Source: an uncultured Clostridium sp.
Lineage (GTDB): Bacteria > Bacillota > Clostridia > TANB77 > CAG-508
Length of the DNA: 64,000 nucleotides
Assembly (NCBI GenBank): GCA_902496295.1
Contig: CABVAF010000003.1
Coordinates: 97,859-161,858 of the forward strand
Direction of reading: 5' to 3'
In this document: piece by piece, positions 2,731 to 46,348 of the stretch
Position numbering within the stretch: position 1 is the first letter of the stretch
How the letters are laid out: each line of letters starts with the position of its first letter
Notes under the pieces: generated by a model
What the model was told of the DNA's origin: nothing
What the model saw: only the letters and a program-made list of their open reading frames with translations
The model's database searches: none
Made by a program: the position numbers and the translations under genes

Positions 2731-2806
2731 TGGCAGGGGTAGAAGGATTCGAACCCTCACCTGTGGTTTTGGAGACCATTATGCTAGCCGTTAACACTAT
2801 ACCCCT
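2731..2806 (-). tRNA. trnW: tRNA-Trp (anticodon CCA)
   Basis: 76-nt cloverleaf read on the minus strand. Acceptor AGGGGTA/TACCCCT, anticodon loop CUCCAAA, T-loop GGTTCGAATCC, encoded 3' CCA. Confidence 0.9.
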
Positions 2807-3932: not shown

Positions 3933-4847
3933 ATGAAACATTTAATTGATATTAAAGATTTATCAACAGATGAAATTAACCACCTTATAGAAATTGCACA
4001 AGACATAATAAAAAACAAAGAAAAATACTCAAAAAAATGTGATGGGAAGAAAATTGCAACATTGTTTTATGAACCAAGTACAAGAACAAGATTAAGTTTT
4101 GAAGCTGCTATGTTAGAGCTTGGAGGAAATGTATTAGGATTTTCAACAGCAGATTCAAGTTCTGTAGCAAAAGGTGAAAGCGTATCAGATACTGCAAAAG
4201 TTATTAGTGGATATGCAGATATAATTGTAATGAGACATCCAAAAGAGGGAGCACCTTTAGTTGCATCAATGAAGTCAGAAGTTCCAGTTATAAATGCTGG
4301 TGATGGAGGACATAATCATCCAACTCAAACATTAACAGATTTATTAACAATTCAATGTGAAAAACACAGGTTATCTAATTTAACAATTGGAATCTGTGGA
4401 GATTTAAAATTCGGAAGAACAGTTCATTCTTTAATAGCCGCAATGGCAAGATATAAAAATATTAAATTCGTATTAATTTCTCCAAAGGAATTAGGAATTC
4501 CAGAATATATAAGAAAAGATATATTGGAAAAAAATAATATTCCATACTATGAAACAAATGACTTAGAAAAATACATGCCTGACTTAGATATTTTATATAT
4601 GACAAGGGTACAAAAAGAAAGATTTTTTAATGAAGATGATTACATTAGATTAAAAGATGCTTATGTGTTAGATAAGGAAAAATTGGAAAATGCAAAAGAA
4701 AATTTATGTATAATGCATCCATTGCCAAGAGTAAACGAAATATCAGTAGAAGTAGATGATGACAAAAGGGCTTGTTATTTTAAGCAAGCTAAATATGGAA
4801 AATATATAAGAATGGCACTTATACTTGAGTTACTTGAAATAAAATAG
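3933..4847 (+). CDS. pyrB: aspartate carbamoyltransferase catalytic subunit
   Basis: STRTRLSFE and HPTQ/HPLPR motifs. Strong SD AGGAGGG. Confidence 0.95.
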
Positions 4848-5318: not shown

Positions 5319-6590
5319 ATGAAAATTTTATTAAAAGGTGGAAGAGTTATAGATTATAAGAATAAAATAGATAGTAAACTTGATATTTTATTAGAAAATG
5401 AAAAAATAACTAAAATAGGTAAAGATATAGAGGAACAAGTAGATAGAGAAATTGATTGTAAAGGGTTAAATATAATTCCGGGAATGATAGATATACATTG
5501 TCATTTAAGAGAACCAGGATTTGAATATAAAGAAACAATAGAGACAGGTGCTAAAAGTGCAGTTGCAGGAGGATTTACAACTATATGCCCAATGCCAAAT
5601 ACTAAACCAACTCCAGATAATGTCGAAACTCTTGAAAAGATAATAGAAGAAGCCAAAAGAGTAAATTTATGCAACATATTACCATATGCGTCAGTAACTA
5701 AAGGAGAAAAAGGAGAGGAACTAGTAAATTTTGAAGAACTAAAAAAAGCGGGTGCAATTGCATTTTCAGATGATGGAATGCCAGTAGTAAATAGCAAAGC
5801 TATGAGAACAGCAATGATAGAAGCAGATAAATTAGGAACATATGTTGCATCACATTGTGAGGAAAAGTCTGTATCTGCTGGAGCAATAAATGCAGGAAGT
5901 GTAGCAGAAAAACTTGAAGTAGAAGGCGTTTTACCAGAAGCGGAAGAAATAATGGCTGCAAGAGAGATTGTTATTTCTGAAACAAATAATGTAAGAGGGC
6001 ACATATGCCATATTAGTACAAAAACTAGCAAAGATATGATTAGAGATGCTAAAAAAAGAGGGGTAAAAATTACTTGTGAGACATGTCCACATTATTTTAC
6101 ATTTACTGTACAAGAAGTTTTAAATGCAGGAACAAATGCAAAAATGAATCCTCCTTTAAGAGAAGAAAAGGATAGAAAAGCAATAATAGAAGGCTTAAAA
6201 GAGGGAACTATTGATTGCATTATAACCGACCATGCACCACATAGTAAGGAAGAAAAAGAACAACCATTAGCAAAAGCACCAAATGGAATAATTGGATTTG
6301 AGACAGCACTTCCAGCAGAAATAATGAATTTAATAGATACAAAAGAATTAGATTACTTTGACTTAGTAAGATTAACATCTTATACTCCAGCAAGTTTGCT
6401 AAAAATAGATAGAGGAACTTTAGAAGAGGGAAAAGTTGCAGACATAACTATATTTGACGAAAATGAGAAGTACGTTTATACAGAAGAGATGATTGTTTCA
6501 AAATCAAAAAATAGTCCTTTTATAGGAAAAGAATTAAAAGGTAAAGTAAAATATACTATAGTAGGTGGAAGAGTAGTATATGAAGGTTAA
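5319..6590 (+). CDS. pyrC: dihydroorotase
   Basis: DIHCHLREPG metal-binding motif and DHAPH motif. 423 aa. Confidence 0.93.
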   Translation: MKILLKGGRVIDYKNKIDSKLDILLENEKITKIGKDIEEQVDREIDCKGLNIIPGMIDIHCHLREPGFEYKETIETGAKSAVAGGFTTICPMPNTKPTPDNVETLEKIIEEAKRVNLCNILPYASVTKGEKGEELVNFEELKKAGAIAFSDDGMPVVNSKAMRTAMIEADKLGTYVASHCEEKSVSAGAINAGSVAEKLEVEGVLPEAEEIMAAREIVISETNNVRGHICHISTKTSKDMIRDAKKRGVKITCETCPHYFTFTVQEVLNAGTNAKMNPPLREEKDRKAIIEGLKEGTIDCIITDHAPHSKEEKEQPLAKAPNGIIGFETALPAEIMNLIDTKELDYFDLVRLTSYTPASLLKIDRGTLEEGKVADITIFDENEKYVYTEEMIVSKSKNSPFIGKELKGKVKYTIVGGRVVYEG

Positions 6591-10032: not shown

Positions 10033-10388
10033 TGGTGGAGATGAGGAGAGTCGAACTCCTGTCCAATATTCTTTCCATATAAACATCTACAAGTTTAGTT
10101 TGTTATTAAAATTCCCCTAATATAAAATTAACAAACAAACTTTATATTAAAGTAGCCACTAGATTACCTACTATTTTTGTGGCAAAAAATAGTTTCGTTT
10201 CCCACTAATCGTCGCCTTATCTAAAAACGTGGGCATTTAAAGTAAGACGTCGCCGCTAAAACTAGGCAGCGTATGCTAATTCTCTATTATCAGCGTTTAT
10301 ATTTAAGTTTTGCCTTTTTAAGTGGCCAGGCAACTCCACTACTTGCAATTTATACTTCTAGGATACTGTCGAAACCAAATACATCCCC
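10033..10388 (-). ncRNA. ssrA: tmRNA (transfer-messenger RNA)
   Basis: 5' GGGGATGTATTTGGTTTCGACAG and 3' GGAGTTCGACTCTCCTCATCTCCACCA tRNA-like ends. Internal tag frame GCT GAT AAT AGA GAA TTA GCA TAC GCT GCC TAG (ADNRELAYAA). Confidence 0.9.
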
Positions 10389-10818: not shown

Positions 10819-12069
10819 ATGCACGGAATAACGCTAATAGCACTAGTTGTAACAATTGTAGTTTTATTAATATTGGCAGGAATAACAATAAGCTTAGTAT
10901 TTAGTGAAAATGGAATAATAGCAAAGGCAAGAGAGGCAGCAGAAAAAACGAATCAAGCTACAATAAATGAGCAAGAAGAAATGAATAAAGTAGCAGATTA
11001 TATGAGTAATATGGTGAATGGAATTGGTGGAGGTACTACGCCAGAAGAAAATATAGACCCAGATACTGGTTGGAATTTAAGCAAAGTAAATAAAGTAACA
11101 AGTACAGACGGAGTGGTTGTGCCAGTACCAATAGGGTATACTGCATCAAGTGTAGCAACAGAAAATACAGTAGCAGATGGATTTGTAATATATGAAGGAG
11201 AAGAAGAGGTAAACGATACTAATAAGAGTGCAGCACAGACAACGAGAAATCAATTTGTGTGGGTGCCAGTAGCAAATCCGAGTGAGATGTATGGAACAGA
11301 TAGTAATGGAAAGAAATGGGGAAAATTATATAGTTTCGCTTCAACTGGAATAACACCACTTAATTGGACAGAGCAAGATGGGGTAATGTCTGTAACAGAT
11401 GTAACAAGTAATCGAGAGCCAGATGTAGTAACTGGAAGTGATGGAATAGAATATGATGCAGTAAGTAGCAATTTACAACAAGCAGGGCTTGATGCAAGTG
11501 CAACTGCAGATACATTTCAGACACAGTTAGAGACAGAGTTTAACAATATGATAGATAGTGTAGAGAAGTATGGAGGATTTTATATAGGAAGATATGAAAC
11601 AGGTAATTTGTCTCAGACAGAAGCAGCAGTTATAAAAAATAACACAGATATAAATAATCAAACATGGTATACGATGTATAATAAGGCAAAAGGAGTAGCT
11701 GCGAATAGTAATGTAACTACAACAATGATATGGGGAAGTCAGTGGGATGCAACATTAAGATGGATGTATAATAGTGGAAATGAAGAAAAAAAGACATATA
11801 CTTATAATAGTACAGGAAAGGGAAATTATGGAAATGGAAATGGCTCACTACTGGCAACAGGTTCTAATGAAAGTTATGCAGTAAATAATATATATGATAT
11901 GGCAGGAAATTTATGGGATTGGACAATTGAAGCGGACCACCCCTTTTTCCGAGTTTGTCGTGGAGGTGGCTACGACGACTTTGCCAGCACTGATCCAGCT
12001 TCTTTTCGCAACCGCAACGAACCGACGCGCAGCGACTTCAGTGGCAGTAGGTTAGCTTTATATATGTAG
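10819..12069 (+). CDS. pilin-like N-terminal anchor fused to an FGE-sulfatase/C-type-lectin-fold domain; candidate DGR target protein
   Basis: N-terminus MHGITLIALVVTIVVLLILAGI resembles a prepilin-type segment. C-terminal motifs YDMAGNLWDWT and RVCRGGGY resemble the FGE-sulfatase family. Paralog of 40966-43464. Confidence 0.75.
   Translation: MHGITLIALVVTIVVLLILAGITISLVFSENGIIAKAREAAEKTNQATINEQEEMNKVADYMSNMVNGIGGGTTPEENIDPDTGWNLSKVNKVTSTDGVVVPVPIGYTASSVATENTVADGFVIYEGEEEVNDTNKSAAQTTRNQFVWVPVANPSEMYGTDSNGKKWGKLYSFASTGITPLNWTEQDGVMSVTDVTSNREPDVVTGSDGIEYDAVSSNLQQAGLDASATADTFQTQLETEFNNMIDSVEKYGGFYIGRYETGNLSQTEAAVIKNNTDINNQTWYTMYNKAKGVAANSNVTTTMIWGSQWDATLRWMYNSGNEEKKTYTYNSTGKGNYGNGNGSLLATGSNESYAVNNIYDMAGNLWDWTIEADHPFFRVCRGGGYDDFASTDPASFRNRNEPTRSDFSGSRLALYM
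11932..12051 (+). other. GC-rich, A-poor, NNC-codon-rich block inside the CDS; candidate DGR variable region
   Basis: Composition changes abruptly at GCGGACCAC and returns to AT-rich 18 nt before the stop. 15 of 31 codons from CGT GGA GGT onward end in C. Confidence 0.45.
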
Positions 12070-12087
12070 CCCTGTCCCCTAATTTTT
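12069..12087. repeat. degenerate fragment of the GGGACAGGTC repeat family
   Basis: GCCCTGTCCCCTAATTTT compared with the family arm GACCTGTCCC(C/T)AATTTC, immediately after the stop codon. Confidence 0.35.
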
Positions 12088-16751: not shown

Positions 16752-18051
16752 GAATAAAAAAGACAACAAAGGTATAAAAAGAAGTGGAAATGATAAAAAT
16801 AATAAAAGTTATACAAATAAAGTTAGCACAATTAATTTAAGAAAATTAATTGTGGTTGTACTTATTGTGCTTATTGTAATCTCTTTTATAGTTTATAAAA
16901 TTGCTATGTTAATTGCAAACCCAACAGCTACTTTTATGGTGGAAGAAGGCTCTATTTATCAAGAGGAAGATACAATAGGATATATTATACGAGATGAGGA
17001 AATTGTTAAAGGCGAAAAATATAAAAATGGAATGGAGCAAATAAAAGCAGAAGGTGAAAAAGTAGCTAAAAATGAACCAATTTTCAGATATTATTCTTCA
17101 GGAGAAGAAGAGCTAGAGAAGAAAATAAGCGATTTAGATAAAAAAATAGACGAAGCAATGCAGGATGAAGATTCTATTCCTACAAGTGATATTGCATCTT
17201 TAGATCAACAAATAACAGAAAAGTTAGATGGGCTTTATCAAGAAACCGACATGAAAAAGATTAAAGAATATAAAAGCGATGTAGACGAATATATAAATAA
17301 AAAGTCTAGGATAGTAGGAGATTATAGTCCAGCAGGTTCATACTTAAAAAAGCTTATAGATGAAAGAAGCAAATACGAAAATGAGTTAAATAATGGAGTT
17401 GAAAAAATAAATGCTCCTGTAAGTGGTATTGTTTCTTATAAAATAGATGGGTATGAGGAGATTTTGTCACCAGATAAATTTGACACAATAAATAAAGAGT
17501 TATTAGAGAGTATAAAGATAAAAACAGGACAAATAATTGCTACAAGTGATGAAAGCGGAAAGATAATTAGTGATTTTAATTTTTATATTGCTTGTATTTT
17601 ATCATCAGAAAGTAGCAAGGATGCAGAAGTAGGAGACAAGGTTAAACTAAGATTTTATAGTGGAAGAGAAATACCAGCAGAAATAACTTATATATCTGAA
17701 GAGGATAATGACAGAATTATAATATTTGAGGTAAACCAAGACGTACAAGATTTAATAAGTTATAGAAAAATATCTTTAGACATCATATGGTGGAGTGACT
17801 CAGGAAAGAAAATTCCAAATGAATCTATTGCAAGAGAACAAAAGGGAGAAAATGAGGTGCCATATGTAATTAGAAGTAGAGATGGATATAGTGACAAAAT
17901 TTATGTAAAGATTTTAAGATCAAATGATAAATATTCAATAGTAACAAATTATACAAAAGATGAATTGAAGGAACTAGGATTTACAGCAGAGGAGATAAAA
18001 TCGACAAAAAGTCTCACAATATACGACGAAATACTAAAAGAACCTACGTAA
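16738..18051 (+). CDS. membrane-anchored HlyD-like (barrel-sandwich/coiled-coil) protein
   Basis: Basic N-terminus, one TM segment, then a coiled-coil region and beta-rich C-terminus. Family assignment is tentative. Confidence 0.45.
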   Translation: MVNNKNKKDNKGIKRSGNDKNNKSYTNKVSTINLRKLIVVVLIVLIVISFIVYKIAMLIANPTATFMVEEGSIYQEEDTIGYIIRDEEIVKGEKYKNGMEQIKAEGEKVAKNEPIFRYYSSGEEELEKKISDLDKKIDEAMQDEDSIPTSDIASLDQQITEKLDGLYQETDMKKIKEYKSDVDEYINKKSRIVGDYSPAGSYLKKLIDERSKYENELNNGVEKINAPVSGIVSYKIDGYEEILSPDKFDTINKELLESIKIKTGQIIATSDESGKIISDFNFYIACILSSESSKDAEVGDKVKLRFYSGREIPAEITYISEEDNDRIIIFEVNQDVQDLISYRKISLDIIWWSDSGKKIPNESIAREQKGENEVPYVIRSRDGYSDKIYVKILRSNDKYSIVTNYTKDELKELGFTAEEIKSTKSLTIYDEILKEPT

Positions 18052-20545: not shown

Positions 20546-22933
20546 TTGGCTAAAAGAGGAAGAAGAAAAAAGAAAACAATAGATATAAATGTTGCTGTTG
20601 TAATATTAGTTATAATCAGTGTACTTTTATTTGTGTTAATATATACAAAATCTGGATATATTGGAGAACATTTAAGCCCAATGCTTGGCGGGATTATGGG
20701 ATTTATAAAATATATAATTCCAATTGGTACATTTTTAATTGCCATATATATGACACATAATGAAAAAGAATATATGTATGCAAAATTAATTCAGTATGCA
20801 GTTTTTTTAGTGTGCATAGCTACAATGCTTAGTGTGTTTCAGTTTTCTAGTGGGAATTTAAATGCAGGCAAAGAATTTAGTAGCGTTATGCAAACTGCAT
20901 ATGAGTTAGGTACAAGCGATATAGGCGGAGGAGTTATAGGAAGTGCTGTTGCTATGCCACTTATTAATTTGCTTGGTACAACAGGTGCAGTTATATTAGT
21001 AATAGGAATTGCAGTTGTTCTATTTGTGTTTATGTTTGGAGTAAGACCTGCTGAAATGATTAGCAACTTCTTAGATGCACTAGATGAAAGGAAAGAACTA
21101 AGAAAGCAAGAGAGAGTTTCTAGAAGAGAATTAGCAAGACAAAATAGAATGAAAATAGAACCTGAAAAAGTACAATTATCACATGAAGAAGAACAACCAC
21201 ATAAAGAAACTAGAAGAGAACGTAAATTAAGAGAAAAAGAAGAAGCAAAGAGAAAAGCATTAGAATTGGATGACCAAATTACTATTAATCTAAATAATGA
21301 AAATACATCTAAGATAGAAGAAAAGCCTAAAAAGTATAATCATGACAAAGATGATTTATCTTATTTAGGAGAAGAAAAGTTGTTTAAACAAGAAGAAGAG
21401 CAAAAAGAAAGCAAAACTAAAGAAGTTTTACAACTTGAACATGCTGTTACAGTAGAAGATAAAGACTATAAATTTCCACCAATAACTTTATTAAGCCAAG
21501 GTGACGCAAAAGAAATAAAAGGTGGTAAGAAAGCCGTTACAGAAACTGCAAGCAGATTGCAAAAGACTTTATATAGTTTTGGAGTATCTGCAAAAGTAGA
21601 GAATGTTTCAGTAGGACCTGCTATAACAAGGTATGAACTTAAACCAGCAGAAGGAGTTAGAGTAAGTAAAATTGCAAATTTAGCAGATGATATTGCATTA
21701 AATTTAGCAGCAGAAAGTATAAGAATAGAGGCTCCTATACCAGGAAAACAAGCTGTTGGAATAGAGATACCAAATGTAGAAAATGAAGTTGTACATTTAA
21801 GAGATATAATTTCTTCAGATGCATTCCAAGGACATAAGTCTAAACTTGCATTTGCATTAGGAAAAGACGTTGCTGGAAAAGAAGTTGTAGCTGATATTGC
21901 TAAGATGCCACACGTTTTAATTGCAGGTGCTACAGGTTCGGGTAAGAGTGTTTGTATAAATACTTTAATTGCGAGCATAATATATAAAGCAAAACCAAGT
22001 GAAGTAAAGCTACTTATGGTAGACCCAAAAGTAGTAGAACTTTCTGTATATAATGGAATACCACATCTTTTAATACCAGTAGTAACAGATCCTAAAAAAG
22101 CAGCAGGAGCACTTGCATGGGCAGTTCAAGAAATGATAAATAGATATAATTTGTTTGCTAAAAAAGGTGTTAGAGATATAAAAGGTTATAATGAAGCAGT
22201 AGAGAAAGAGGGAGAGACCGGAAAACTTCCACAAATAGTAATAATTATAGACGAGCTTTCAGACTTAATGATGGCATCTCCTAAAGAAGTAGAGGACTCA
22301 ATATGTAGATTAGCACAAATGGCAAGAGCTGCAGGAATGCATTTAGTAATTGCAACACAAAGACCATCTGTAGATGTTATTACAGGTGTAATTAAAGCAA
22401 ACATTCCTTCAAGAATATCATTTGCAGTATCTTCACAAGTCGATTCAAGAACTATATTAGATATGGTAGGTGCAGAAAAGCTATTAGGAAAAGGTGATAT
22501 GTTATTTTATCCATCAGGAGCACCAAAGCCAACAAGAATTCAAGGTGCATTCGTTTCAGATAAAGAAGTAGAAAAGCTAGTAGAGTTCTTAAAATCTCAA
22601 GGAGAAGTAACATACGATGATGAAATATTAGAACAAATAGAAAACTCAGATAAAACAGATAAAGAAATAGCAGAAGAAGATGACAAGCAAACAACGGACC
22701 CACTTCTATTAGAAGCAATAGATACAGTAGTAGAAACAGGTCAAGCGTCGACATCATTTATACAAAGAAGATTTAAAGTTGGTTATGCTAGAGCAGGAAG
22801 AATAATAGATCAGATGGAAGAAAGAGGAATAATATCAGGTTACCAAGGCAGTAAACCAAGAGAAGTTTTAATGAGCAAGGAAAGATGGCAAGAACTAAAA
22901 ATGACTAAGCTAGAAAACGACGATGGAAATTAG
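20546..22933 (+). CDS. ftsK: DNA translocase FtsK/SpoIIIE
   Basis: N-terminal TM segments, Walker A GATGSGKS, ATQRPSVDVITG, and a C-terminal gamma winged-helix. TTG start after GGGGAGG. The stop codon lies inside the repeat element. Confidence 0.93.
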   Translation: MAKRGRRKKKTIDINVAVVILVIISVLLFVLIYTKSGYIGEHLSPMLGGIMGFIKYIIPIGTFLIAIYMTHNEKEYMYAKLIQYAVFLVCIATMLSVFQFSSGNLNAGKEFSSVMQTAYELGTSDIGGGVIGSAVAMPLINLLGTTGAVILVIGIAVVLFVFMFGVRPAEMISNFLDALDERKELRKQERVSRRELARQNRMKIEPEKVQLSHEEEQPHKETRRERKLREKEEAKRKALELDDQITINLNNENTSKIEEKPKKYNHDKDDLSYLGEEKLFKQEEEQKESKTKEVLQLEHAVTVEDKDYKFPPITLLSQGDAKEIKGGKKAVTETASRLQKTLYSFGVSAKVENVSVGPAITRYELKPAEGVRVSKIANLADDIALNLAAESIRIEAPIPGKQAVGIEIPNVENEVVHLRDIISSDAFQGHKSKLAFALGKDVAGKEVVADIAKMPHVLIAGATGSGKSVCINTLIASIIYKAKPSEVKLLMVDPKVVELSVYNGIPHLLIPVVTDPKKAAGALAWAVQEMINRYNLFAKKGVRDIKGYNEAVEKEGETGKLPQIVIIIDELSDLMMASPKEVEDSICRLAQMARAAGMHLVIATQRPSVDVITGVIKANIPSRISFAVSSQVDSRTILDMVGAEKLLGKGDMLFYPSGAPKPTRIQGAFVSDKEVEKLVEFLKSQGEVTYDDEILEQIENSDKTDKEIAEEDDKQTTDPLLLEAIDTVVETGQASTSFIQRRFKVGYARAGRIIDQMEERGIISGYQGSKPREVLMSKERWQELKMTKLENDDGN

Positions 22934-23018
22934 AGACAGGTCCCAATTTCCAAAAGTCAGAAATTTGGACCTGTCCCTAATTTCTGAAACTCAGAAAAAA
23001 TGACCTGTCCCCAATTTC
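22926..23018. repeat. cluster of GGGACAGGTC-family palindromic units (REP/REPIN-like)
   Basis: One palindromic unit GAAATTAGAGACAGGTCCCAATTTC, plus a 51-nt segment (22968-23018) that differs at one base from the right end of the transposase unit (29341-29391). Confidence 0.85.
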
Positions 23019-23036
23019 GAGAAAGGATTTCAAAAG

Positions 23037-26294: not shown

Positions 26295-28253
26295 ATGAGA
26301 ACAAAATATTATAATGATGCTTTTATAGGAAACAAAGATATTTTAGCTACATATAGCAAAAAAGGAGAATTATTAAGGCTATATTATCCAAATCCGGACT
26401 TTAGACAGTTTATAGATTTTTTTGGAACAGGAATAAAGGTTAATGATTCAGGAATGATTTATCTACATGAAGATATAAACAATAAATATAGCCAATATTA
26501 TGATGAAGATACAAATATACTAAATACGGAAATAGAGAATTTATATTATAGACTAAAAATAAAGCAAACAGATTACACATCAATAAAGAAAGATGTTATT
26601 ATAAAACAGTATGTATTTGAAAATAATAATAGTATAAATTTAGACATAAATTTTTTAGTACATTCAAAACTAATTTACGAGGAGAATAATGCAGTTGGTT
26701 CTCAAATAAAAAATAATGCACTAATTCAATATTGCCATGATTATGCACTTGGAATTTTTTCTAAAGAAAACATATATAGTCATCAATTAAATGATGTTGC
26801 AAATAATATACAAAGTGGAGTAATACAAGATAAAGACTATATTGGAATGGCAGCAGACTCAGCTGTTAGTTATGATATTGGAATAATAAAGCCTGGAGAA
26901 AAAAGAGAATTTGTATTATTTATAGTTCCAACTCAAGGAATAGCTGAAGGAGATAATCAATTATTACTAGATAAAATAGATGAAGTAAGGAAAATAGACT
27001 TAAAAGCAGAAAAGCAAAATGTAGCTAAATATTGGAAAAAGTTTGTAAAAGACCATTATAAATTAGGAGAAAAATATCAAATCACAAATAAAAATTATCA
27101 AGGATATTTAGAAAAGTTAAATAAAATATATAAAAGAAGTATACTACTTTTTCCATTGCTTATGGATGAGACAACTGGTGGAATAGTTGCTTCAGCAGAA
27201 GTAGATGAGGAAAAGAGCCAATCTGGAAGATATGCATATTGTTGGCCAAGAGATGCAGTTTTTATTTGTTCAGCACTTGACAAAATAGGGATGACAAAAG
27301 AAGTAGAAAAGTTTTATAAAGTATTTTGTAAAAATACACAAAGCAAAAGTGGAATGTGGGAACAAAGATTTTATACAGATGGAAAGCTTGCGCCTTGTTG
27401 GGGATATCAAATAGATGAAACTGCTAGTGTAATATATGGTGTTTACGAACACTACAAAGTAACTAAAGAAGGAAAATTTATAAAAGATACATTTAAAATG
27501 TGTGACAAAGCAGTAAGATTTCTAGAAAGATATATGGATAATATATTAGGAACAAAAGATGATAGCGATGTTGTAAAAAAAGAAATTGAAGAAACGTATC
27601 ATACAGAAGATAGAGAAAAACTACCAGTAAGCTATGACTTATGGGAAATGAATGAAGGTGTTCATCTATATTCTTTAGCAAGCATAAATGCAGCATATAA
27701 TGCTATGCTTAAAATATATGAAATAATGGAGCCAGAGTATAAAGAAAACAGACTAAAACTTGAGAATATACATAAAAATGTAATTCGCATAAAGAAACAA
27801 TTAGAAGTTATGCAAAAGTATGTAAGTAAAAACTTATATAATGAAAAAACAAAAACATTAAAAAGAAATACAGAAGATGAGAAAACAGACATAAGTATTT
27901 TAGGAAGTGTATATCCTTTTGAAATGTTTGGGCCAAAAGAAAAGAAAGTATTAAATACTATAGAGAAAATAAACTTAACACTACGTACATATACAGGAGG
28001 ATATTTACGTTTTGAACAAGATAGTTATCGTGGAGGAAAAAATCCATGGCCAATATCAACACTATGGATGTCGATGTACTATCAAAAAGCAGGAGAGGCA
28101 AAAAAAGCAAAAGAATGTCTAGAATTTGTTATAAAGAGTTGTAATGAACATGGATTACTTGGAGAACAAGTAGACAACCAAACATTACAGCCAAACTGGG
28201 TAGTAGGCCTAGGCTGGTCTCATGCAATGTTTATTCTATCACTTGGAAATTAG
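26295..28253 (+). CDS. glycoside hydrolase family 15 (glucoamylase-like)
   Basis: YCWPRDAVF, DLWE and PISTLWMSMYY motifs typical of bacterial GH15. The stop codon lies inside the repeat element. Confidence 0.75.
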   Translation: MRTKYYNDAFIGNKDILATYSKKGELLRLYYPNPDFRQFIDFFGTGIKVNDSGMIYLHEDINNKYSQYYDEDTNILNTEIENLYYRLKIKQTDYTSIKKDVIIKQYVFENNNSINLDINFLVHSKLIYEENNAVGSQIKNNALIQYCHDYALGIFSKENIYSHQLNDVANNIQSGVIQDKDYIGMAADSAVSYDIGIIKPGEKREFVLFIVPTQGIAEGDNQLLLDKIDEVRKIDLKAEKQNVAKYWKKFVKDHYKLGEKYQITNKNYQGYLEKLNKIYKRSILLFPLLMDETTGGIVASAEVDEEKSQSGRYAYCWPRDAVFICSALDKIGMTKEVEKFYKVFCKNTQSKSGMWEQRFYTDGKLAPCWGYQIDETASVIYGVYEHYKVTKEGKFIKDTFKMCDKAVRFLERYMDNILGTKDDSDVVKKEIEETYHTEDREKLPVSYDLWEMNEGVHLYSLASINAAYNAMLKIYEIMEPEYKENRLKLENIHKNVIRIKKQLEVMQKYVSKNLYNEKTKTLKRNTEDEKTDISILGSVYPFEMFGPKEKKVLNTIEKINLTLRTYTGGYLRFEQDSYRGGKNPWPISTLWMSMYYQKAGEAKKAKECLEFVIKSCNEHGLLGEQVDNQTLQPNWVVGLGWSHAMFILSLGN

Positions 28254-28296
28254 GGACAGGTCATTTTTTCTGAATTTCAGAAATTAGGGACAGGTC
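28246..28296 (+). repeat. left terminal REP doublet
   Basis: GAAATTAGGGACAGGTCATTTTTTCTGAATTTCAGAAATTAGGGACAGGTC. Confidence 0.9.
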
Positions 28297-28432
28297 AACA
28301 TGTCCTAAAAAGCAAAAGTATTTTATAAAAATAAGATTTAAAAAGGTGATAATTTTAGTTTATAAGGGGGCAAATTATCATAATGCTATATTTTATAGTG
28401 TTATGGGAGTTTGCTTTTTTTAAATAATTAAG

Positions 28433-28461
28433 TTGAAAAAAATAATGTTATAATATATAAT
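28433..28461 (+). promoter_or_regulatory. promoter of the transposase gene
   Basis: TTGAAA, 17-nt spacer, TATAAT. Confidence 0.45.
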
Positions 28462-28504
28462 GTAAATGTTTTTGAAAGTTTGGGGCTAGGGGAAAGGACA
28501 GTAA

Positions 28505-29314
28505 ATGAGAGAAGCAAGAAAATTAACCCAAAGTAAACTTTATCATGTTATTATAAGAGGAATAAATAGACAAGATATTTTCTTTGATAATCAGGATAAA
28601 AGAAAATTTAAAAAAGAGCTAAAGAAAGCAAAAGAAAAATTTGAATATTCATTATATGCATATGTTTTAATGCCAAATCATGTTCATTTAATTATTTATG
28701 ACAAAGATAATAATTTATCTAAAATTATGCATAGCATTTTAGTGAGTTTTTCGGAGTATACAAATAAAAAATATAAGAGAAATGGACATTTGTTTCAAAA
28801 TAGGTTTAAAAGTAAGCCTATAGAGGATAATGAGTATTTGAAAACAGCTATAAAGTATATCCATTATAATCCGGAAAAAGCAGGAATTGCTAGATATAAT
28901 GAATATGAATGGAGTAGTTACAAAGAATATACTAACGAGAATAGTTATAACTTAACAGATACGGATTACGTTTTAAAATTGATGAAAGAAACAAACGATA
29001 TTTCCGCAAAAGCGGAATTTATAAAACAGCATGTAGAATATAAAGAAAGTAAACTTTCAGAGATTAAAAATCGTATAGAATATGAGTTGGAAAATAAAAT
29101 AAACGATGAAGAACTAATATCATTTATTATATTTGAACTTAAATTAGAAAATATATATGAGTTACAGCATTATAATGTTGAATACTTAAAAGAATTATTG
29201 ATACCTATATTTAAAGAATTAAATGTAAATGCATTCCAACTTTCCAGAGTTACTGGAATTCCTAAGGATATTGTATATAAAATAAAAAAAATCCGCGATA
29301 GCGGAAAATGCTAA
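28505..29314 (+). CDS. REP-associated tyrosine transposase-like protein (IS200/IS605 Y1 HUH family) with C-terminal HTH-like extension
   Basis: HUH motif MPNHVHLII and catalytic Tyr context YIHYNPEKAGI. About 130 extra C-terminal residues ending in an HTH-like FQLSRVTGIPKDIVYKIKK. Confidence 0.8.
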   Translation: MREARKLTQSKLYHVIIRGINRQDIFFDNQDKRKFKKELKKAKEKFEYSLYAYVLMPNHVHLIIYDKDNNLSKIMHSILVSFSEYTNKKYKRNGHLFQNRFKSKPIEDNEYLKTAIKYIHYNPEKAGIARYNEYEWSSYKEYTNENSYNLTDTDYVLKLMKETNDISAKAEFIKQHVEYKESKLSEIKNRIEYELENKINDEELISFIIFELKLENIYELQHYNVEYLKELLIPIFKELNVNAFQLSRVTGIPKDIVYKIKKIRDSGKC

Positions 29315-29340
29315 GAAAGATTAAGTTTAAATTTATTGGT

Positions 29341-29391
29341 GACCTGTCCCTAATTTCTGAAATTCAGAAAAAATGACCTGTCCCCAATTTC
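29341..29391 (-). repeat. right terminal REP doublet (inverted)
   Basis: GACCTGTCCCTAATTTCTGAAATTCAGAAAAAATGACCTGTCCCCAATTTC. Confidence 0.9.
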
Positions 29392-29404
29392 TAAGGAGGA
29401 GAAA

Positions 29405-30764
29405 ATGGCAAAAACTAGTACAATTTTTGTATGTAGTAATTGTGGATATGAGTCTGGAAAATGGCTAGGCAAGTGTCCAGCATGTAATGAGTGGAATAGT
29501 TTTTATGAAGAAAAGTTGTCTAAGACAACTGGAAGTACTAGTAAGGAAAAGAAAGTAGTTACGCCAAGATTATTAAATGAGGTTAAAGGCGCAGAAGCTG
29601 TTAGAGTTAAAACTGGTATTGGCGAATTAGATAGAGTTTTAGGTGGAGGATTAGTTAAAGGTTCACTTGTTTTAGTTGGTGGAGAGCCTGGTATTGGTAA
29701 GTCAACCTTAATTTTACAACTTTGCAATAGTGTACAAGGAGAAGGCAAAGTTTTATATGTTTCAGGAGAGGAGTCTGCTGAGCAAATAAAAATTAGGGCA
29801 GATAGGCTTGGCATTAACAATAGCGATATTTTATTTTTAGGGGAAACAGATATAGATGTAATTGAAAATAACATTTTGGAACTTAATCCTAAATTAGTTA
29901 TTATAGATTCTATACAAACAATGTATTCAGAAGATATTACATCTGCTGCTGGAACAGTTAGTCAAGTAAGAGAAATTACTTCTAGAATTATGAGAGTCTG
30001 TAAAAGCAATGAAGTTACCACAATAATAATAGGTCATGTTACAAAAGATGGAAATATAGCAGGACCAAGAGTTTTAGAACATATGGTAGATACAGTTTTG
30101 TATTTAGAAGGAGAAAGATATTTTTCATATAGAATTTTAAGAGGTGTAAAAAATCGTTTTGGCTCTACTAATGAGGTAGGAATGTTTGAAATGCAAAGCG
30201 AAGGTATGAAGGAAATTACAAATCCGTCTTCAGTTTTAATTTCAGAGAGAAAAGATAATCCACCAGGATCTGTTATTGTTGCTGCAATGGAGGGAACAAG
30301 ACCGCTTTTAATAGAGCTTCAGGCATTAACTACTTTAAGTGTATATGGACTTCCTAGAAGGACAGCGAATGGAATTGATTATAATAGACTTACACTCTTA
30401 ATTGCTGTTCTTGAGAAGAAACTTGGATTTGCTTTAGGAAATCAAGATGTTTACTTAAATGTGGTTAGTGGTATAAAAATATCAGAACCAGCTGTAGATT
30501 TAGGAATAATGCTATCTTGTGCATCAAGCTTTAAAAATATTAGTATACCAACAGACACCGTAGTAATAGGTGAAGTACGGCTTAACAGGAGAGGTGAGAG
30601 CTGTTAATTTAGTAGATAAAAGACTAAAGGAAGCCGAGAAACTTGGATTTAAAACTTGTATAATTCCTGAAAGTAATAAAAAACTATTGAAAGAAAACTA
30701 TAAATTAGATATAATAGGCGTTAGTAATATAAAAGAGGCAATTCAAGCAGTAGGATTAAGGTAA
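29405..30764 (+). pseudogene. radA: DNA repair protein RadA/Sms interrupted by a 1-nt insertion
   Basis: Zinc ribbon CSNCGYESGKWLGKCPAC, Walker A GEPGIGKST, KNRFG. The frame breaks inside the conserved GEVGLTGEVR motif at about 30577-30578. The C-terminus continues in the +1 frame (track ORF 30570-30764). Confidence 0.8.
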
Positions 30765-30829: not shown

Positions 30830-31903
30830 ATGGCAACTAAGAATGACGAGATAACAGAAATTCTGAAGCTAATAGCTCCAGGAACACCAATAAGAGATGG
30901 ACTTGAAAATATTTTAAAAGCTAAAACAGGAGGACTTATTGCGGTAGGGGATAAAAAAGAAGTTCTAGACTTAGTAGACGGAGGATTTAAGTTAGATATT
31001 GACTATTCACCAGCTAGATTATATGAACTTGCTAAAATGGATGGAGCAATTGTTTTAAGTTCAGACTTTAAGAAAATTTTATTTGCAAATGCACAGTTAA
31101 TACCTGACTCAAGTGTTCCAACATCAGAAACAGGTACAAGACATAGAACTGCAGAGCGTACAGCAAGACAAACCGGCTCACTTGTAATAAGTATTTCACA
31201 AAGAAGAGGCATTATTACTATCTTCAAAGGAAATATAAGATATGTTTTAGAAGAAACTTCACAGGTAATATCAAAGGCAAGTCAAGCACTTCAAACTGTA
31301 GAAAAATATAAAAAAGTATTTGATAATAAACTTAGTATACTAAATGAATATGAATTTAATGATATTGTTACTTTAGAAAATGTTATTATAGCAATTCAAC
31401 GTGCAGAAATGGCAATGCGAGTTATAGAAGAAGTAAAAAAAGCAATATACGAGCTTGGAGATGAGGGAAGATTAGTAGAAATGCAACTTGAAGAACTTAC
31501 AGGAGATATGGAAAGTGAAGAGTTATTTATAATAAAAGATTATATAGCTCCAGGAAAAAAGAGAACTGCTGAAAGAGTATTAGAAGATATAAAAAATCTT
31601 AGTAGAGATGACTTATTAAAACCAGATAAAATAGCTACAGCACTTGGATATGAAGATTTTGACAATTACGACGAGGTTGGAGTTTATACAAGAGGGTATA
31701 GAATTTTAAATAAAATTCCAAGAATGCCAAGTAATATAGTAGACAATTTAGTAAAATCATTTAAATCATTCCAACATATATTAGCAGCAGAAATTCCACA
31801 ACTTGATGATGTAGAAGGAATTGGTGAAGTAAGAGCAAGAACAATAAAGCAATCATTAAGAAGAATGCAAGACCAATTTGTTTTTGATAACTTGGTATTA
31901 TAA
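30830..31903 (+). CDS. disA: DNA integrity scanning protein DisA (diadenylate cyclase)
   Basis: DAC domain motifs DGAIVL and TRHRTAER, with a C-terminal HhH. Canonical radA-disA pairing. Confidence 0.93.
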   Translation: MATKNDEITEILKLIAPGTPIRDGLENILKAKTGGLIAVGDKKEVLDLVDGGFKLDIDYSPARLYELAKMDGAIVLSSDFKKILFANAQLIPDSSVPTSETGTRHRTAERTARQTGSLVISISQRRGIITIFKGNIRYVLEETSQVISKASQALQTVEKYKKVFDNKLSILNEYEFNDIVTLENVIIAIQRAEMAMRVIEEVKKAIYELGDEGRLVEMQLEELTGDMESEELFIIKDYIAPGKKRTAERVLEDIKNLSRDDLLKPDKIATALGYEDFDNYDEVGVYTRGYRILNKIPRMPSNIVDNLVKSFKSFQHILAAEIPQLDDVEGIGEVRARTIKQSLRRMQDQFVFDNLVL

Positions 31904-33504: not shown

Positions 33505-35668
<2,164 letters not shown>

Positions 35669-35672
35669 TAAG

Positions 35673-45504: not shown

Positions 45505-45693
45505 ATGTTAGTTAGACCAACAGTTTTACAATTATTAAAAAATGTAGACAATAGATATGTTTTAGTTACAGCTACTGCAAAAAGAGCAAGACAAATTGCA
45601 GCAGGAAGTAAACCATTAACTTCAAAGGAGGAACCATCACCTGTATCTTATGCTGCTGATGAATTAGCAGAAGGTAAGGTGACAATATGTTAG
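45505..45693 (+). CDS. rpoZ: DNA-directed RNA polymerase subunit omega
   Basis: NRYVLVTATAKRARQI core motif. 62 aa. Confidence 0.85.
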   Translation: MLVRPTVLQLLKNVDNRYVLVTATAKRARQIAAGSKPLTSKEEPSPVSYAADELAEGKVTIC

Positions 45694-46268
45694 TTTTACT
45701 TTCTGGAGTATCTGGTGCAGGAAAAGATACTATAAAAAAAGAATTAATAAAAAGAATGGACAATGCAGATTCACTACCATCATATACAGATAGACTACCA
45801 AGAGAAGGAGACATTCCAGGAGAAACATATAACTTTGTTACAACAGAAGAATTTGAAAATATGATAGATAATGGAGATTTATACGAATATAGTTTACATC
45901 ATGAACATTATTATGGCACTTCTAAAAAACTTTTAAATGAAAAAATAAATAATGGGAAAATTATAATAAAAGATATAGAAGTAAATGGAGTAGAAAATCT
46001 ACTAAGAATTTTGAAAGACGATGTTAAAATTGTAACTATCTTTTTAAAAGTTCCAAAAAGCGCTTTGCAAAAAAGATTAGAAAATAGAGTAGATAAACCA
46101 AGTTTAAAAGAAATACAATTACGTTTAAATAGAATAGATTACGAAGAGTCTAAACTTGGCATGTACGATTATGTAATAAAAAATAATAATTTAGAAAAGT
46201 CACTAGACATTATACAAGCTATTATAAGAGACGAGTACAATTTAAAAAAAGAAGAGGCTGAATTTTAG
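45687..46268 (+). CDS. gmk: guanylate kinase family protein
   Basis: P-loop SGVSGAGKDT and YTDRLPREGDIPGETYNFVTTEEF...YYGTSK. Order remA-rpoZ-gmk differs from the usual remA-gmk-rpoZ. Confidence 0.7.
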   Translation: MLVLLSGVSGAGKDTIKKELIKRMDNADSLPSYTDRLPREGDIPGETYNFVTTEEFENMIDNGDLYEYSLHHEHYYGTSKKLLNEKINNGKIIIKDIEVNGVENLLRILKDDVKIVTIFLKVPKSALQKRLENRVDKPSLKEIQLRLNRIDYEESKLGMYDYVIKNNNLEKSLDIIQAIIRDEYNLKKEEAEF

Positions 46269-46293
46269 AAATTGGGGATAGGTTCAAATTTCC
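46268..46293. repeat. degenerate single unit of the GGGACAGGTC repeat family
   Basis: GAAATTGGGGATAGGTTCAAATTTCC compared with the unit GAAATTAGAGACAGGTCCCAATTTCC. Overlaps the last base of the gmk stop codon. Confidence 0.45.
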
Positions 46294-46348
46294 AAAGTAA
46301 TTACCAAAATGAAAAAAAGAGATATATTGAGAAAAATTTATAAAACAG

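Follow-up and report, generated by a model that had tools for sequence, protein, structure and literature searches.

Among the genes related to REP-associated tyrosine transposases (RAYTs), Di Nocera, De Gregorio and Rocco 2013 (PMC3733652) described TIRYTs, or TIRtrons, which are RAYT-like genes located within terminal inverted repeats (TIRs) that often share the sequence GGGGWSAS. In the part of that article available, some genomes are said to hold moderately abundant TIR families, present as singles, dimers or clusters, and repeat termini that give TAG stops to neighbouring genes are reported for GTAG repetitive extragenic palindromic (REP) sequences. Most TIRYTs were later assigned to subclass 2.1 of the TnpA_Y1 proteins by Quentin et al. 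2018 (PMC6006769), who characterised it by an SS motif in the proximal tail, by a C-terminal domain resembling HTH_23, HTH_28 or Bac_DnaA_C, and by three further motifs, namely NHVH or NH[YF]H, then W[EQ] or FQ, then YIELNP or Y[IV]HLNP; in this survey, the largest of its kind, REP-like sequences were not found near its genes. Bertels et al. 2017 (PMC5581495) noted Group 1 RAYTs in Clostridia and reported some 12 occurrences per replicon for the 16-mers found beside Group 1 genes. In the literature searched, the term TIRYT appeared only in Di Nocera 2013 and Quentin 2018. Here we describe a locus in a 64-kb stretch of an uncultured Clostridium sp. (contig CABVAF010000003.1, positions 97,859 to 161,858; hereafter the window), in which an HUH/Y1 gene lies between two inverted repeats directly upstream of radA and disA. 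With a probability of roughly 0.8, it is a TIRtron made up of one chromosomal, vertically inherited TIRYT gene and two inverted copies of its cognate repeat.

An HUH/Y1 gene between inverted doublets

The original prediction, made from the sequence alone, was of a single RAYT-like gene bracketed by near-perfect 51-bp inverted repeats, and this description holds. Reverse-complemented, 29341-29391 differs from 28246-28296 at 1 of 51 positions, and the inverted repeat can be extended to 28242-28300 and 29337-29395 (59 nt, 3 mismatches, 95%). The sole open reading frame (ORF) between the arms encodes 269 aa and contains both motifs named in the prediction, NHVHLI and YIHYNPEKAG. Also as predicted, there is no tnpB, nor any second ORF, between the two arms, and the sequences on their outer sides (CACTT on the left, AAGGAGG on the right) are not a direct duplication. 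Each arm is a direct doublet of 53 nt containing two copies of the 18-nt sequence GAAATTAGGGACAGGTCA with a period of 34 nt, and the 16-nt spacer between the 18-mers contains the palindrome TTCTGAATTTCAGAA. The 18-nt unit consensus is GAAATT[A/G]GGGACAGGTCA. The units in the arms had been taken as palindromic, which proved incorrect: they are direct 18-mers that end in GGTCA and form no hairpin, the palindromic form (GGAAATT.GGGAC-AG-GTCCCAATTTCC) being confined to gene-less sites. The GGGGWSAS motif is matched by GGGGACAG at 29379-29386 on the minus strand, while the remaining three arm units read AGGGACAG; relatives retain GGGGACAG or a shorter GGGAC or GGGGAC core. The canonical GT[AG]G tag of REPs is absent from the units, which have TT[AG]G at the corresponding position and read TT[AG]GGGAC. 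The upstream GH15 gene ends inside the left arm, its stop codon being the TAG at 28251-28253, and the outer end of the right arm adjoins the ribosome-binding site of radA (AAGGAGG), the ATG of which is at 29405.

The encoded protein comprises an HUH/Y1 domain (residues ~1-140), a helical linker and a C-terminal helix-turn-helix (HTH)-like domain (~200-266), with NHVHLI starting at residue 58 and YIHYNPEKAG at residue 118. It matches Pfam Y1_Tnp with an E value of 1.6e-15. Its assignment as a RAYT-type HUH/Y1 protein and not an IS200 transposase, which agrees with the prediction, is supported by the NCBIfam models (81 bits for REP_Tyr_transpos, cut-off 80; 23.5 bits for the IS200 model NF033573, below its cut-off of 55) and by structure. 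In a sequence search of the PDB the top match, a weak one, was E. coli TnpArep (4ER8, E 0.03). An AlphaFold model built with an alignment of 40 homologs (pLDDT 90.5) retrieved 4ER8 first in Foldseek (E 1.6e-7, TMt 0.74), followed by the IS200, IS608 and ISDra2 transposases at E ~3e-4, about 1000-fold weaker. In the alignment, the HUH histidines, the tyrosine, FQ (in LFQNRF), NHVH and WSSY are invariant or nearly so, and a C-terminal block (...Q.SR.TGI....I.R) is likewise conserved. The invariance of the HUH and tyrosine residues across the 40 homologs indicates that catalysis is retained.

Among the same 40 homologs, Pfam HTH families are matched by several tails (HTH_23 in 9/40, HTH_28 in 7/40 and HTH_7 in 6/40). 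The window protein by itself has no Pfam HTH match, and its isolated tail, which is modelled alone as a helical bundle (pLDDT 80.5), gave a sub-threshold match to RNR_N and nothing else in Pfam. This extension had been put forward as an added novelty, but an HTH tail is the rule in subclass 2.1 and therefore adds none. Judged by motifs and domains, the best label for the gene is probably TIRYT/TIRtron, equivalent to TnpA_Y1 subclass 2.1 (probably 2.1.2) and to RAYT Group 1. The clostridial host is also less unexpected than had been claimed, because Group 1 RAYTs were already listed in Clostridia (PMC5581495).

A dispersed repeat with sharp ends

Within the window, the repeat core TAGGGACAGGTCA (allowing up to 2 mismatches) has 12 matches in 64 kb where 0.54 would be expected, and none of 100 shuffles reached 12. 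Eleven of the 12 matches fall into three clusters, located after ftsK (22925-23019), at the two flanks of the gene, and after ligA (35542-35669); the twelfth, at 22731-22743 inside ftsK, is probably due to chance. Units therefore occur at intergenic sites without a gene, as had been observed originally. As single-stranded DNA (ssDNA), both gene-less clusters fold into long hairpins (-20.2 kcal/mol, z -6.2, after ftsK; -32.8 kcal/mol, z -7.8, after ligA). The ftsK, GH15 and ligA genes of the window all terminate at a repeat unit, their products ending in ...GN directly before the stop.

Dispersal beyond the window was assessed by scanning GAAATTRGGGACAGGTC against one genome per species, the resulting counts being lower bounds. 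Among the matches listed, many were in CALXVM01, a metagenome-assembled genome (MAG) of related uncultured Clostridia with 86-88% identity to the window in shared genes, and several in a few other Clostridia MAGs; single matches in other phyla are estimated to be at chance level for a 17-mer in 596 Gb. The 320 kb of repeat-bearing blocks of CALXVM01 contain at least ~97 units, in at least ~54 clusters on at least 19 contigs. When copies are aligned in register, the usual one is a 53-nt direct doublet (++ or --), with inverted pairs a minority, and the doublet consensus is GGAAATT[A/G]GGGACAGGTCCCAA[C/T]TTCC - C[GATTT or AAATC]G - GGAAATT[G/A]GGGACAGGTCA. The predicted RAYT/REPIN system is thus borne out in its RAYT-type gene and dispersed repeat but not in its REPIN form, the direct doublet being the commonest dispersed form. 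In the species of the window itself, the exact protein is also encoded by a gut metagenome scaffold of 197 kb and by a contig of 1102 nt that recurs in 11 samples. Both ends of the latter lie inside the central palindromes of the two gene-flanking doublets, as expected from an assembler if the outer repeat has several copies. When metagenomes were scanned with the species-specific doublet centre GGTCATTTTTTCTGRRTTTCAGAAATT, four contigs from one assembly matched, of which two overlap the window at 99% identity and two are unrelated to it and carry further doublets; the repeat is therefore not confined to the window.

The aligned copies have sharp ends on both sides, on the left at TT/GGAAATT (the slash marking the boundary) and on the right after GGTCA. 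In the 5' flank, T is found at -2 in 55/65 elements and at -1 in 56/65 (~85%); with a TT flank expected at 14%, the probability of at least 52 of 65 elements having one is ~1e-32. No target duplication is present at any copy, the flanks being TT...AA in the inverted sense. The elements are also closely associated with gene ends: in 27/65, the TAG inside GGAAATTAG is itself the stop of an ORF 80 or more codons long, and an ORF stop lies no more than 5 nt upstream in 9 further elements, a total of 36/65 against 1.1% at random TT positions. As read from the sequence, only one of the element's three reading frames contains a stop codon, so that the association with gene ends has a simple explanation, in which elements insert at TT and those that lengthen or break proteins are then selected against. 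Displacement of the native stop codon to the right end of the element was considered and rejected, as the 3' flanks do not begin with stops. No empty site was found when cluster flanks were compared across all fetched loci, and the three window sites are filled in every related species. In the distant locus L108 there is no repeat at the ftsK end, but its ftsK tail is too diverged for the insertion point to be placed.

The repeats that flank the gene vary by lineage, although within each lineage the two arms match and the GGGAC/GGGGAC core is kept. They are of the GGGACAGGTC type in the window and L001, GGGACCAGATC in L104 (the same species as CALXVM01, with flanks 98-99% identical), AAGCACTTGGGGACAGGTC in L106 and AATTGGGGACAGTCCCCAATT in L108, while those of L110 consist of several GGGAC units. 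Wherever GH15 is the neighbour, its stop codon and the left arm overlap, and the right arm adjoins the radA ribosome-binding site in all lineages compared. Compensatory substitutions distinguish the central palindrome of the window from that of L001/CALXVM01 (TTTCTGAATTTCAGAAA vs TTTCCCGATTTGGGAAA), the change being common to the copies within each genome; the switch from CTGAATTTCAG to CCCGATTTGGG is an example of such species-specific change across a genome's copies. The same orthologous site may hold a single unit, a doublet or inverted doublets in different species, which together with the genome-wide shared palindrome changes indicates continuing turnover. A homolog of 30% identity in a Bacteroidaceae MAG (L015), also with a C-terminal tail, has GGGGACAGGTCA units on both sides in the same inward-facing arrangement (two direct copies upstream at 4760-4810; one forward and two inverted downstream at 5685-5750), so that the 12-mer core is conserved across phyla. 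There is no radA linkage at the locus of this homolog.

Other variants of the repeat were also observed. A second family with the core GGGACCAGATC has 22 units in the CALXVM01 blocks and 0 in the window, with sites at L104 5805-5870 and 6850-6885 and at CALXVM01 loci such as L038, L057, L080, L083 and L086. Its units are often directly beside GGGACAGGTC doublets, and at the GH15 stop in the L104/CALXVM01 species the GGGACCAGATC repeat overwrote part of an older GGGACAGG unit. In CALXVM01 doublets (for example L021 vs L031), the central palindrome has its 5-nt loop in either orientation (CCCGATTTGGG and CCCAAATCGGG), and the loop flips alone, the arm mismatches being unchanged between the two. 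The same MAG has at least 3 copies of an element of ~290 bp resembling a miniature inverted-repeat transposable element (MITE), at L023 3752-4048, L028 7423-7711 and L095 7452-7733, in which inverted doublets of the gene-flank type surround a conserved ~170-nt module with long internal inverted repeats (AAAAAGAGTAGTATTTTT...CTTAAAATTTGTGT...ACACAAATTTTAAG...). This module is also present at the ligA end of L001 (~17270-17460) and absent from the window.

Inheritance and the position before radA and disA

An orthologue with 81% identity occupies the same place, between the GH15 gene and radA, in a genome that also shares the repeats at all three sites. In all 11 of the 11 clostridial genes checked, down to 43% identity, the gene lies directly 5' of radA-disA on the same strand. 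These comprise the window gene, nine homologs looked up (81%-43% identity) and the L043 homolog (48%), which surfaced beside radA in a locus fetched by DNA pattern scan. The upstream neighbour varies, being GH15 in one group and a MiaB-like gene with a small ORF in another. A loss of GH15 in L003/L004 was considered and rejected, the upstream ORFs there being cut GH15 fragments. No mention of the radA linkage was found in Quentin et al. 2018 (PMC6006769).

Between the window and L001, the ratio of nonsynonymous to synonymous substitution (dN/dS) of the gene is 0.10 (0.06 in the N-terminal half, 0.13 in the tail) and that of its neighbours 0.02-0.08, while dS is 1.04 for the gene and 0.51-0.93 for the neighbours. 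The low dN/dS and neighbour-like dS indicate that the gene is functional and has diverged together with its surroundings. No second copy was found in the 64-kb window or in the 320 kb of repeat-bearing CALXVM01 blocks, and the same locus is occupied in every lineage checked, in agreement with the single copy originally predicted. Close relatives on plasmids or phages were sought and none exceeded 40% identity: homologs were found in 17 of 72,556 plasmid records, all below 40%, and in one phage record, the human faecal phage contig MT835484.1 (1191-1889), whose distant homolog has 26.7% identity over 83% of the protein.

The promoter-like site upstream of the gene has 11/12 matches; such sites are as many in the region as in shuffles, and the promoter block AAGTTGAAAAA...TTATAATATATAATGTA is kept in L001 and L104. 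No terminator-like site is found on the + strand between the TIRYT gene and radA. From this absence and the conserved TTGAAA-17-TATAAT, the gene is probably co-transcribed with radA-disA. Between the left doublet and the promoter-like site, 28366-28422 forms a terminator-like hairpin followed by a T run (GGGGGCAAATTATCA...GGGAGTTTGCTTTTTTT), which was unflagged by a simple terminator scan and is kept in L001 inside the TIR-bounded segment; it is probably the terminator of GH15.

Several radA genes are called as more than one ORF. Relative to the L001 orthologue, the window radA has a 1-nt insertion near 30577 (in 30570-30610), giving ORFs of 400 aa and 64 aa, and the independent record L116 gives the same 400-aa call; this is either a real frameshift or an assembly error common to the records. 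Elsewhere, radA is called as 2-3 ORFs (L110 6941-8307, L113 4791-6201, L114 4787-6203, L112 4847-6209 and L115 4797-6080). In the clade with the MiaB-like neighbour, a split between the ATPase and Lon-like parts, with a 257-aa C-terminal ORF, recurs at a similar position, which suggests real gene fission in this clade rather than errors. The features of the locus and of the other repeat sites are collected in Table 1. At gathering thresholds, Rfam gave nothing at the repeats in the whole window, its only matches being a tmRNA (10033-10388, minus strand, 173.9 bits) and a tRNA (2734-2806, minus strand).

Table 1. Positions in the window of the probable TIRtron, its downstream partner and the dispersed repeat units.
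Feature	Position	Strand	Description
Probable TIRYT gene, TnpA_Y1 subclass 2.1 type	28505..29314	+	HUH/Y1 nuclease
Left arm	28245..28297	+	53-nt direct doublet: GGAAATTAGGGACAGGTCA, TTTTTTCTGAATTTCA, GAAATTAGGGACAGGTCA in order
Right arm	29340..29392	-	same 53-nt doublet as left arm, inverted
Promoter-like site TTGAAA-17-TATAAT	28433..28461	+	44 nt 5' of start codon
radA	29405..30764	+	conserved downstream partner; followed by disA (30830-31903)
Gene-less cluster	22925..23019		one palindromic unit and an inverted doublet; first unit gives the ftsK TAG stop
Gene-less cluster	35542..35669		two inverted doublets ~20 nt apart; first unit gives the ligA TAG stop
Degenerate single unit	12067..12087	-	AAAATTAGGGGACAGGGCTA on minus strand; abuts stop codon of ORF 10819-12069
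Degenerate palindromic unit	46266..46294	+	AGAAATTGGGGATAGGTTCAAATTTCC; overlaps TAG stop of ORF 45687-46268

Proposed working, alternatives and known systems

In the TIRtron reading, the cognate DNA would be the 53-nt doublet, with its two 18-nt units around a small palindrome, and the protein, combining the Y1 and HTH domains, would act in trans on doublets by recognising the GGGGACAGGTCA core. It would cut one strand at the two sharp ends of the element, TT/GGAAATT and GGTCA/, and the freed piece would be reinserted 3' of a TT elsewhere, in a mode resembling the 'peel and paste' of IS200/IS605 elements and the action of RAYTs on REPs. The gene itself would be immobile because its two arms lie on opposite strands, and its transcription, shared with radA-disA, would start at its own conserved promoter. 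The class of the protein, the inverted doublets, the dispersal of the repeat with its sharp ends and TT flank, the purifying selection, the fixed synteny and the lineage-specific joint change of both arms are direct results of the comparisons above, while mobilisation in trans and the role of the HTH domain are inferred. The observation made in the original prediction is accordingly confirmed, and its interpretation in part supported.

Several points weigh against this reading. The NCBIfam REP_Tyr_transpos score is only 1 bit above its cut-off. The isolated C-terminal domain found nothing significant in the PDB (best E 2.4, the weak matches being small HTH domains), and because the window protein also lacks a Pfam HTH, the HTH assignment holds at family level only. 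Hairpin formation is seen in the gene-less clusters but hardly in the gene-flanking doublets, which as single strands fold weakly (z -1.9 to -4.4), in contrast to the hairpins of canonical REPs. The radA-linked gene of the CALXVM01 species has GGGACCAGATC-type repeats at its flanks while the GGGACAGGTC type is the abundant one, indicating that cognate pairing there is not one-to-one. As no empty site was found, TT may belong to the element and not to its target. To our knowledge, no subclass 2.1 or TIRYT protein has been studied biochemically, and for this reason the proposed cleavage at TT/ and GGTCA/ is drawn from the boundaries of copies.

The association with radA-disA could instead reflect domestication, in which the protein has become a DNA-binding or DNA-processing factor tied to these genes and the repeats now serve mainly as binding or regulatory sites or as RNA hairpins at gene ends, no longer being mobilised; the conserved position would then reflect a host function, or the use of the gene's promoter to drive radA-disA. 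Such an explanation accounts well for the position directly 5' of radA-disA on the same strand in 11/11 cases despite different upstream neighbours, for the right arm always lying beside the radA ribosome-binding site, for the conserved promoter-like block with no + strand terminator-like site before radA, and for the purifying selection (dN/dS 0.10). It is also compatible with the repeats at the ftsK end, the gene flanks and the ligA end, which are filled in every related species compared, suggesting that these insertions are old. However, species-specific changes common to a genome's copies, such as CTGAATTTCAG to CCCGATTTGGG, and the different cluster composition at the same site in different species indicate turnover and not frozen sites, and the HUH and tyrosine residues are invariant in 40 homologs. 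Domestication without mobilisation is thus considered unlikely, although it partly overlaps with the TIRtron reading and both could be true. A broader proposal, rather speculative, is that a Y1-HTH ssDNA nuclease has been built into the radA-disA operon clade-wide in gut Clostridia, where it would have a host role in handling ssDNA during repair, or its activity, and with it the movement of the repeats, would be coupled to the DNA-damage response, the repeats having co-evolved in place throughout the clade's history with a GGGGACAGGTCA core shared even with the Bacteroidaceae homolog.

Two further explanations concern the mobility of the DNA itself. The Y1_Tnp domain and the structural similarity to the IS200, IS608 and ISDra2 transposases (E ~3e-4) would fit an ordinary autonomous IS200/IS605 insertion sequence with tnpA only, present by chance once in the window. 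This is close to refuted: the score under the NCBIfam IS200 model is 23.5 where 55 is required, the arms are an inverted pair and not the same-strand subterminal hairpins that form the ends of that family, tnpB is missing, the gene occupies one and the same locus in 11 lineages and has a dS like that of its neighbours, and neither the window nor the 320 kb of repeat-bearing blocks of the related genome holds a second copy. Within the data examined, the gene is therefore not one of many identical IS200/IS605 copies with tnpB. Alternatively, the repeats could have been spread by other means, either by a cut-and-paste transposase acting on MITE-like inverted repeats or by recombination and slippage, with a secondary association to the Y1 gene. 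Inverted doublets enclose the structured module of 170 nt at 3 or more places in the related genome, and the module is also present at the L001 ligA end, which gives a MITE-like appearance; slippage between direct 18-mers can account for the single 19-nt units. However, no copy has a target-site duplication, the commonest form is a one-sided direct doublet that a TIR-dependent cut-and-paste enzyme would not move, and each homolog, across lineages and even beyond the phylum, has its own variant of the GGGGAC-core repeat at its flanks. Spread independent of the Y1 protein is accordingly very improbable.

The locus offers a clean test system, with one intact gene under purifying selection and a cognate element that is short and well-bounded and has a candidate target (TT) and candidate cleavage sites. 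Related species offer natural variants in which protein and repeat have changed together, and the position before radA-disA in 11/11 lineages leads to a concrete hypothesis on why 'domesticated' transposases persist.

In comparison with known systems, the locus is neither a classical REPIN system nor an IS200/IS605 element. It shares with the former (TnpArep 4ER8; Pseudomonas REPINs) a probably vertically inherited Y1 gene, seen in one copy in the sequence examined, between inverted copies of a dispersed repeat, as well as the closest structural match and, going by the portion of PMC3733652 available, repeat termini that give TAG stops as for GTAG REPs. It differs in the TT[AG]G in place of a GT[AG]G tag, in arm units that are not hairpins, in a dispersed form that is mostly a direct doublet (although two gene-less window clusters do hold inverted units), in the probable extra HTH domain and in belonging to a different subclass. 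With IS200/IS605 elements such as IS608 and ISDra2 it has in common the HUH/Y1 fold, the lack of target duplication and an apparent insertion 3' of a short conserved flank, TT here and TTAC in IS608; unlike these, it has one copy in the window, no tnpB, inverted ends, no match to the family model and a fixed synteny.

The likeness to subclass 2.1 and Group 1 includes NHVH, FQ for the W motif, the Y[IV]H.NP form, the SS motif, a probable distal HTH_23/HTH_28-like domain and an apparently low copy number, whereas the Y motif is YIHYNP, one residue off Y[IV]HLNP, and palindromic and doublet repeats both flank the gene and are dispersed. As TIRtrons are described in the available text of Di Nocera 2013, the locus resembles them in its RAYT-like HUH/Y1 gene within long TIRs that are not canonical REPs, in TIRs carrying GGGGWSAS (GGGGACAG), in a protein longer than classical RAYTs and, as in some of the genomes described there, in TIRs that recur as a family of singles, dimers and clusters. 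The hosts described in that text are Proteobacteria and Acidobacteria, with no clostridial example found there, and it does not mention a direct-doublet TIR with a 34-nt period, a fixed radA-disA position clade-wide or a TT flank. What is new here is the clostridial TIRtron host and the fixed position of the gene before radA, the arrangement itself being already known; the locus overturns no current view and is nothing categorically new, but extends the known TIRtron kind to gut Clostridia.

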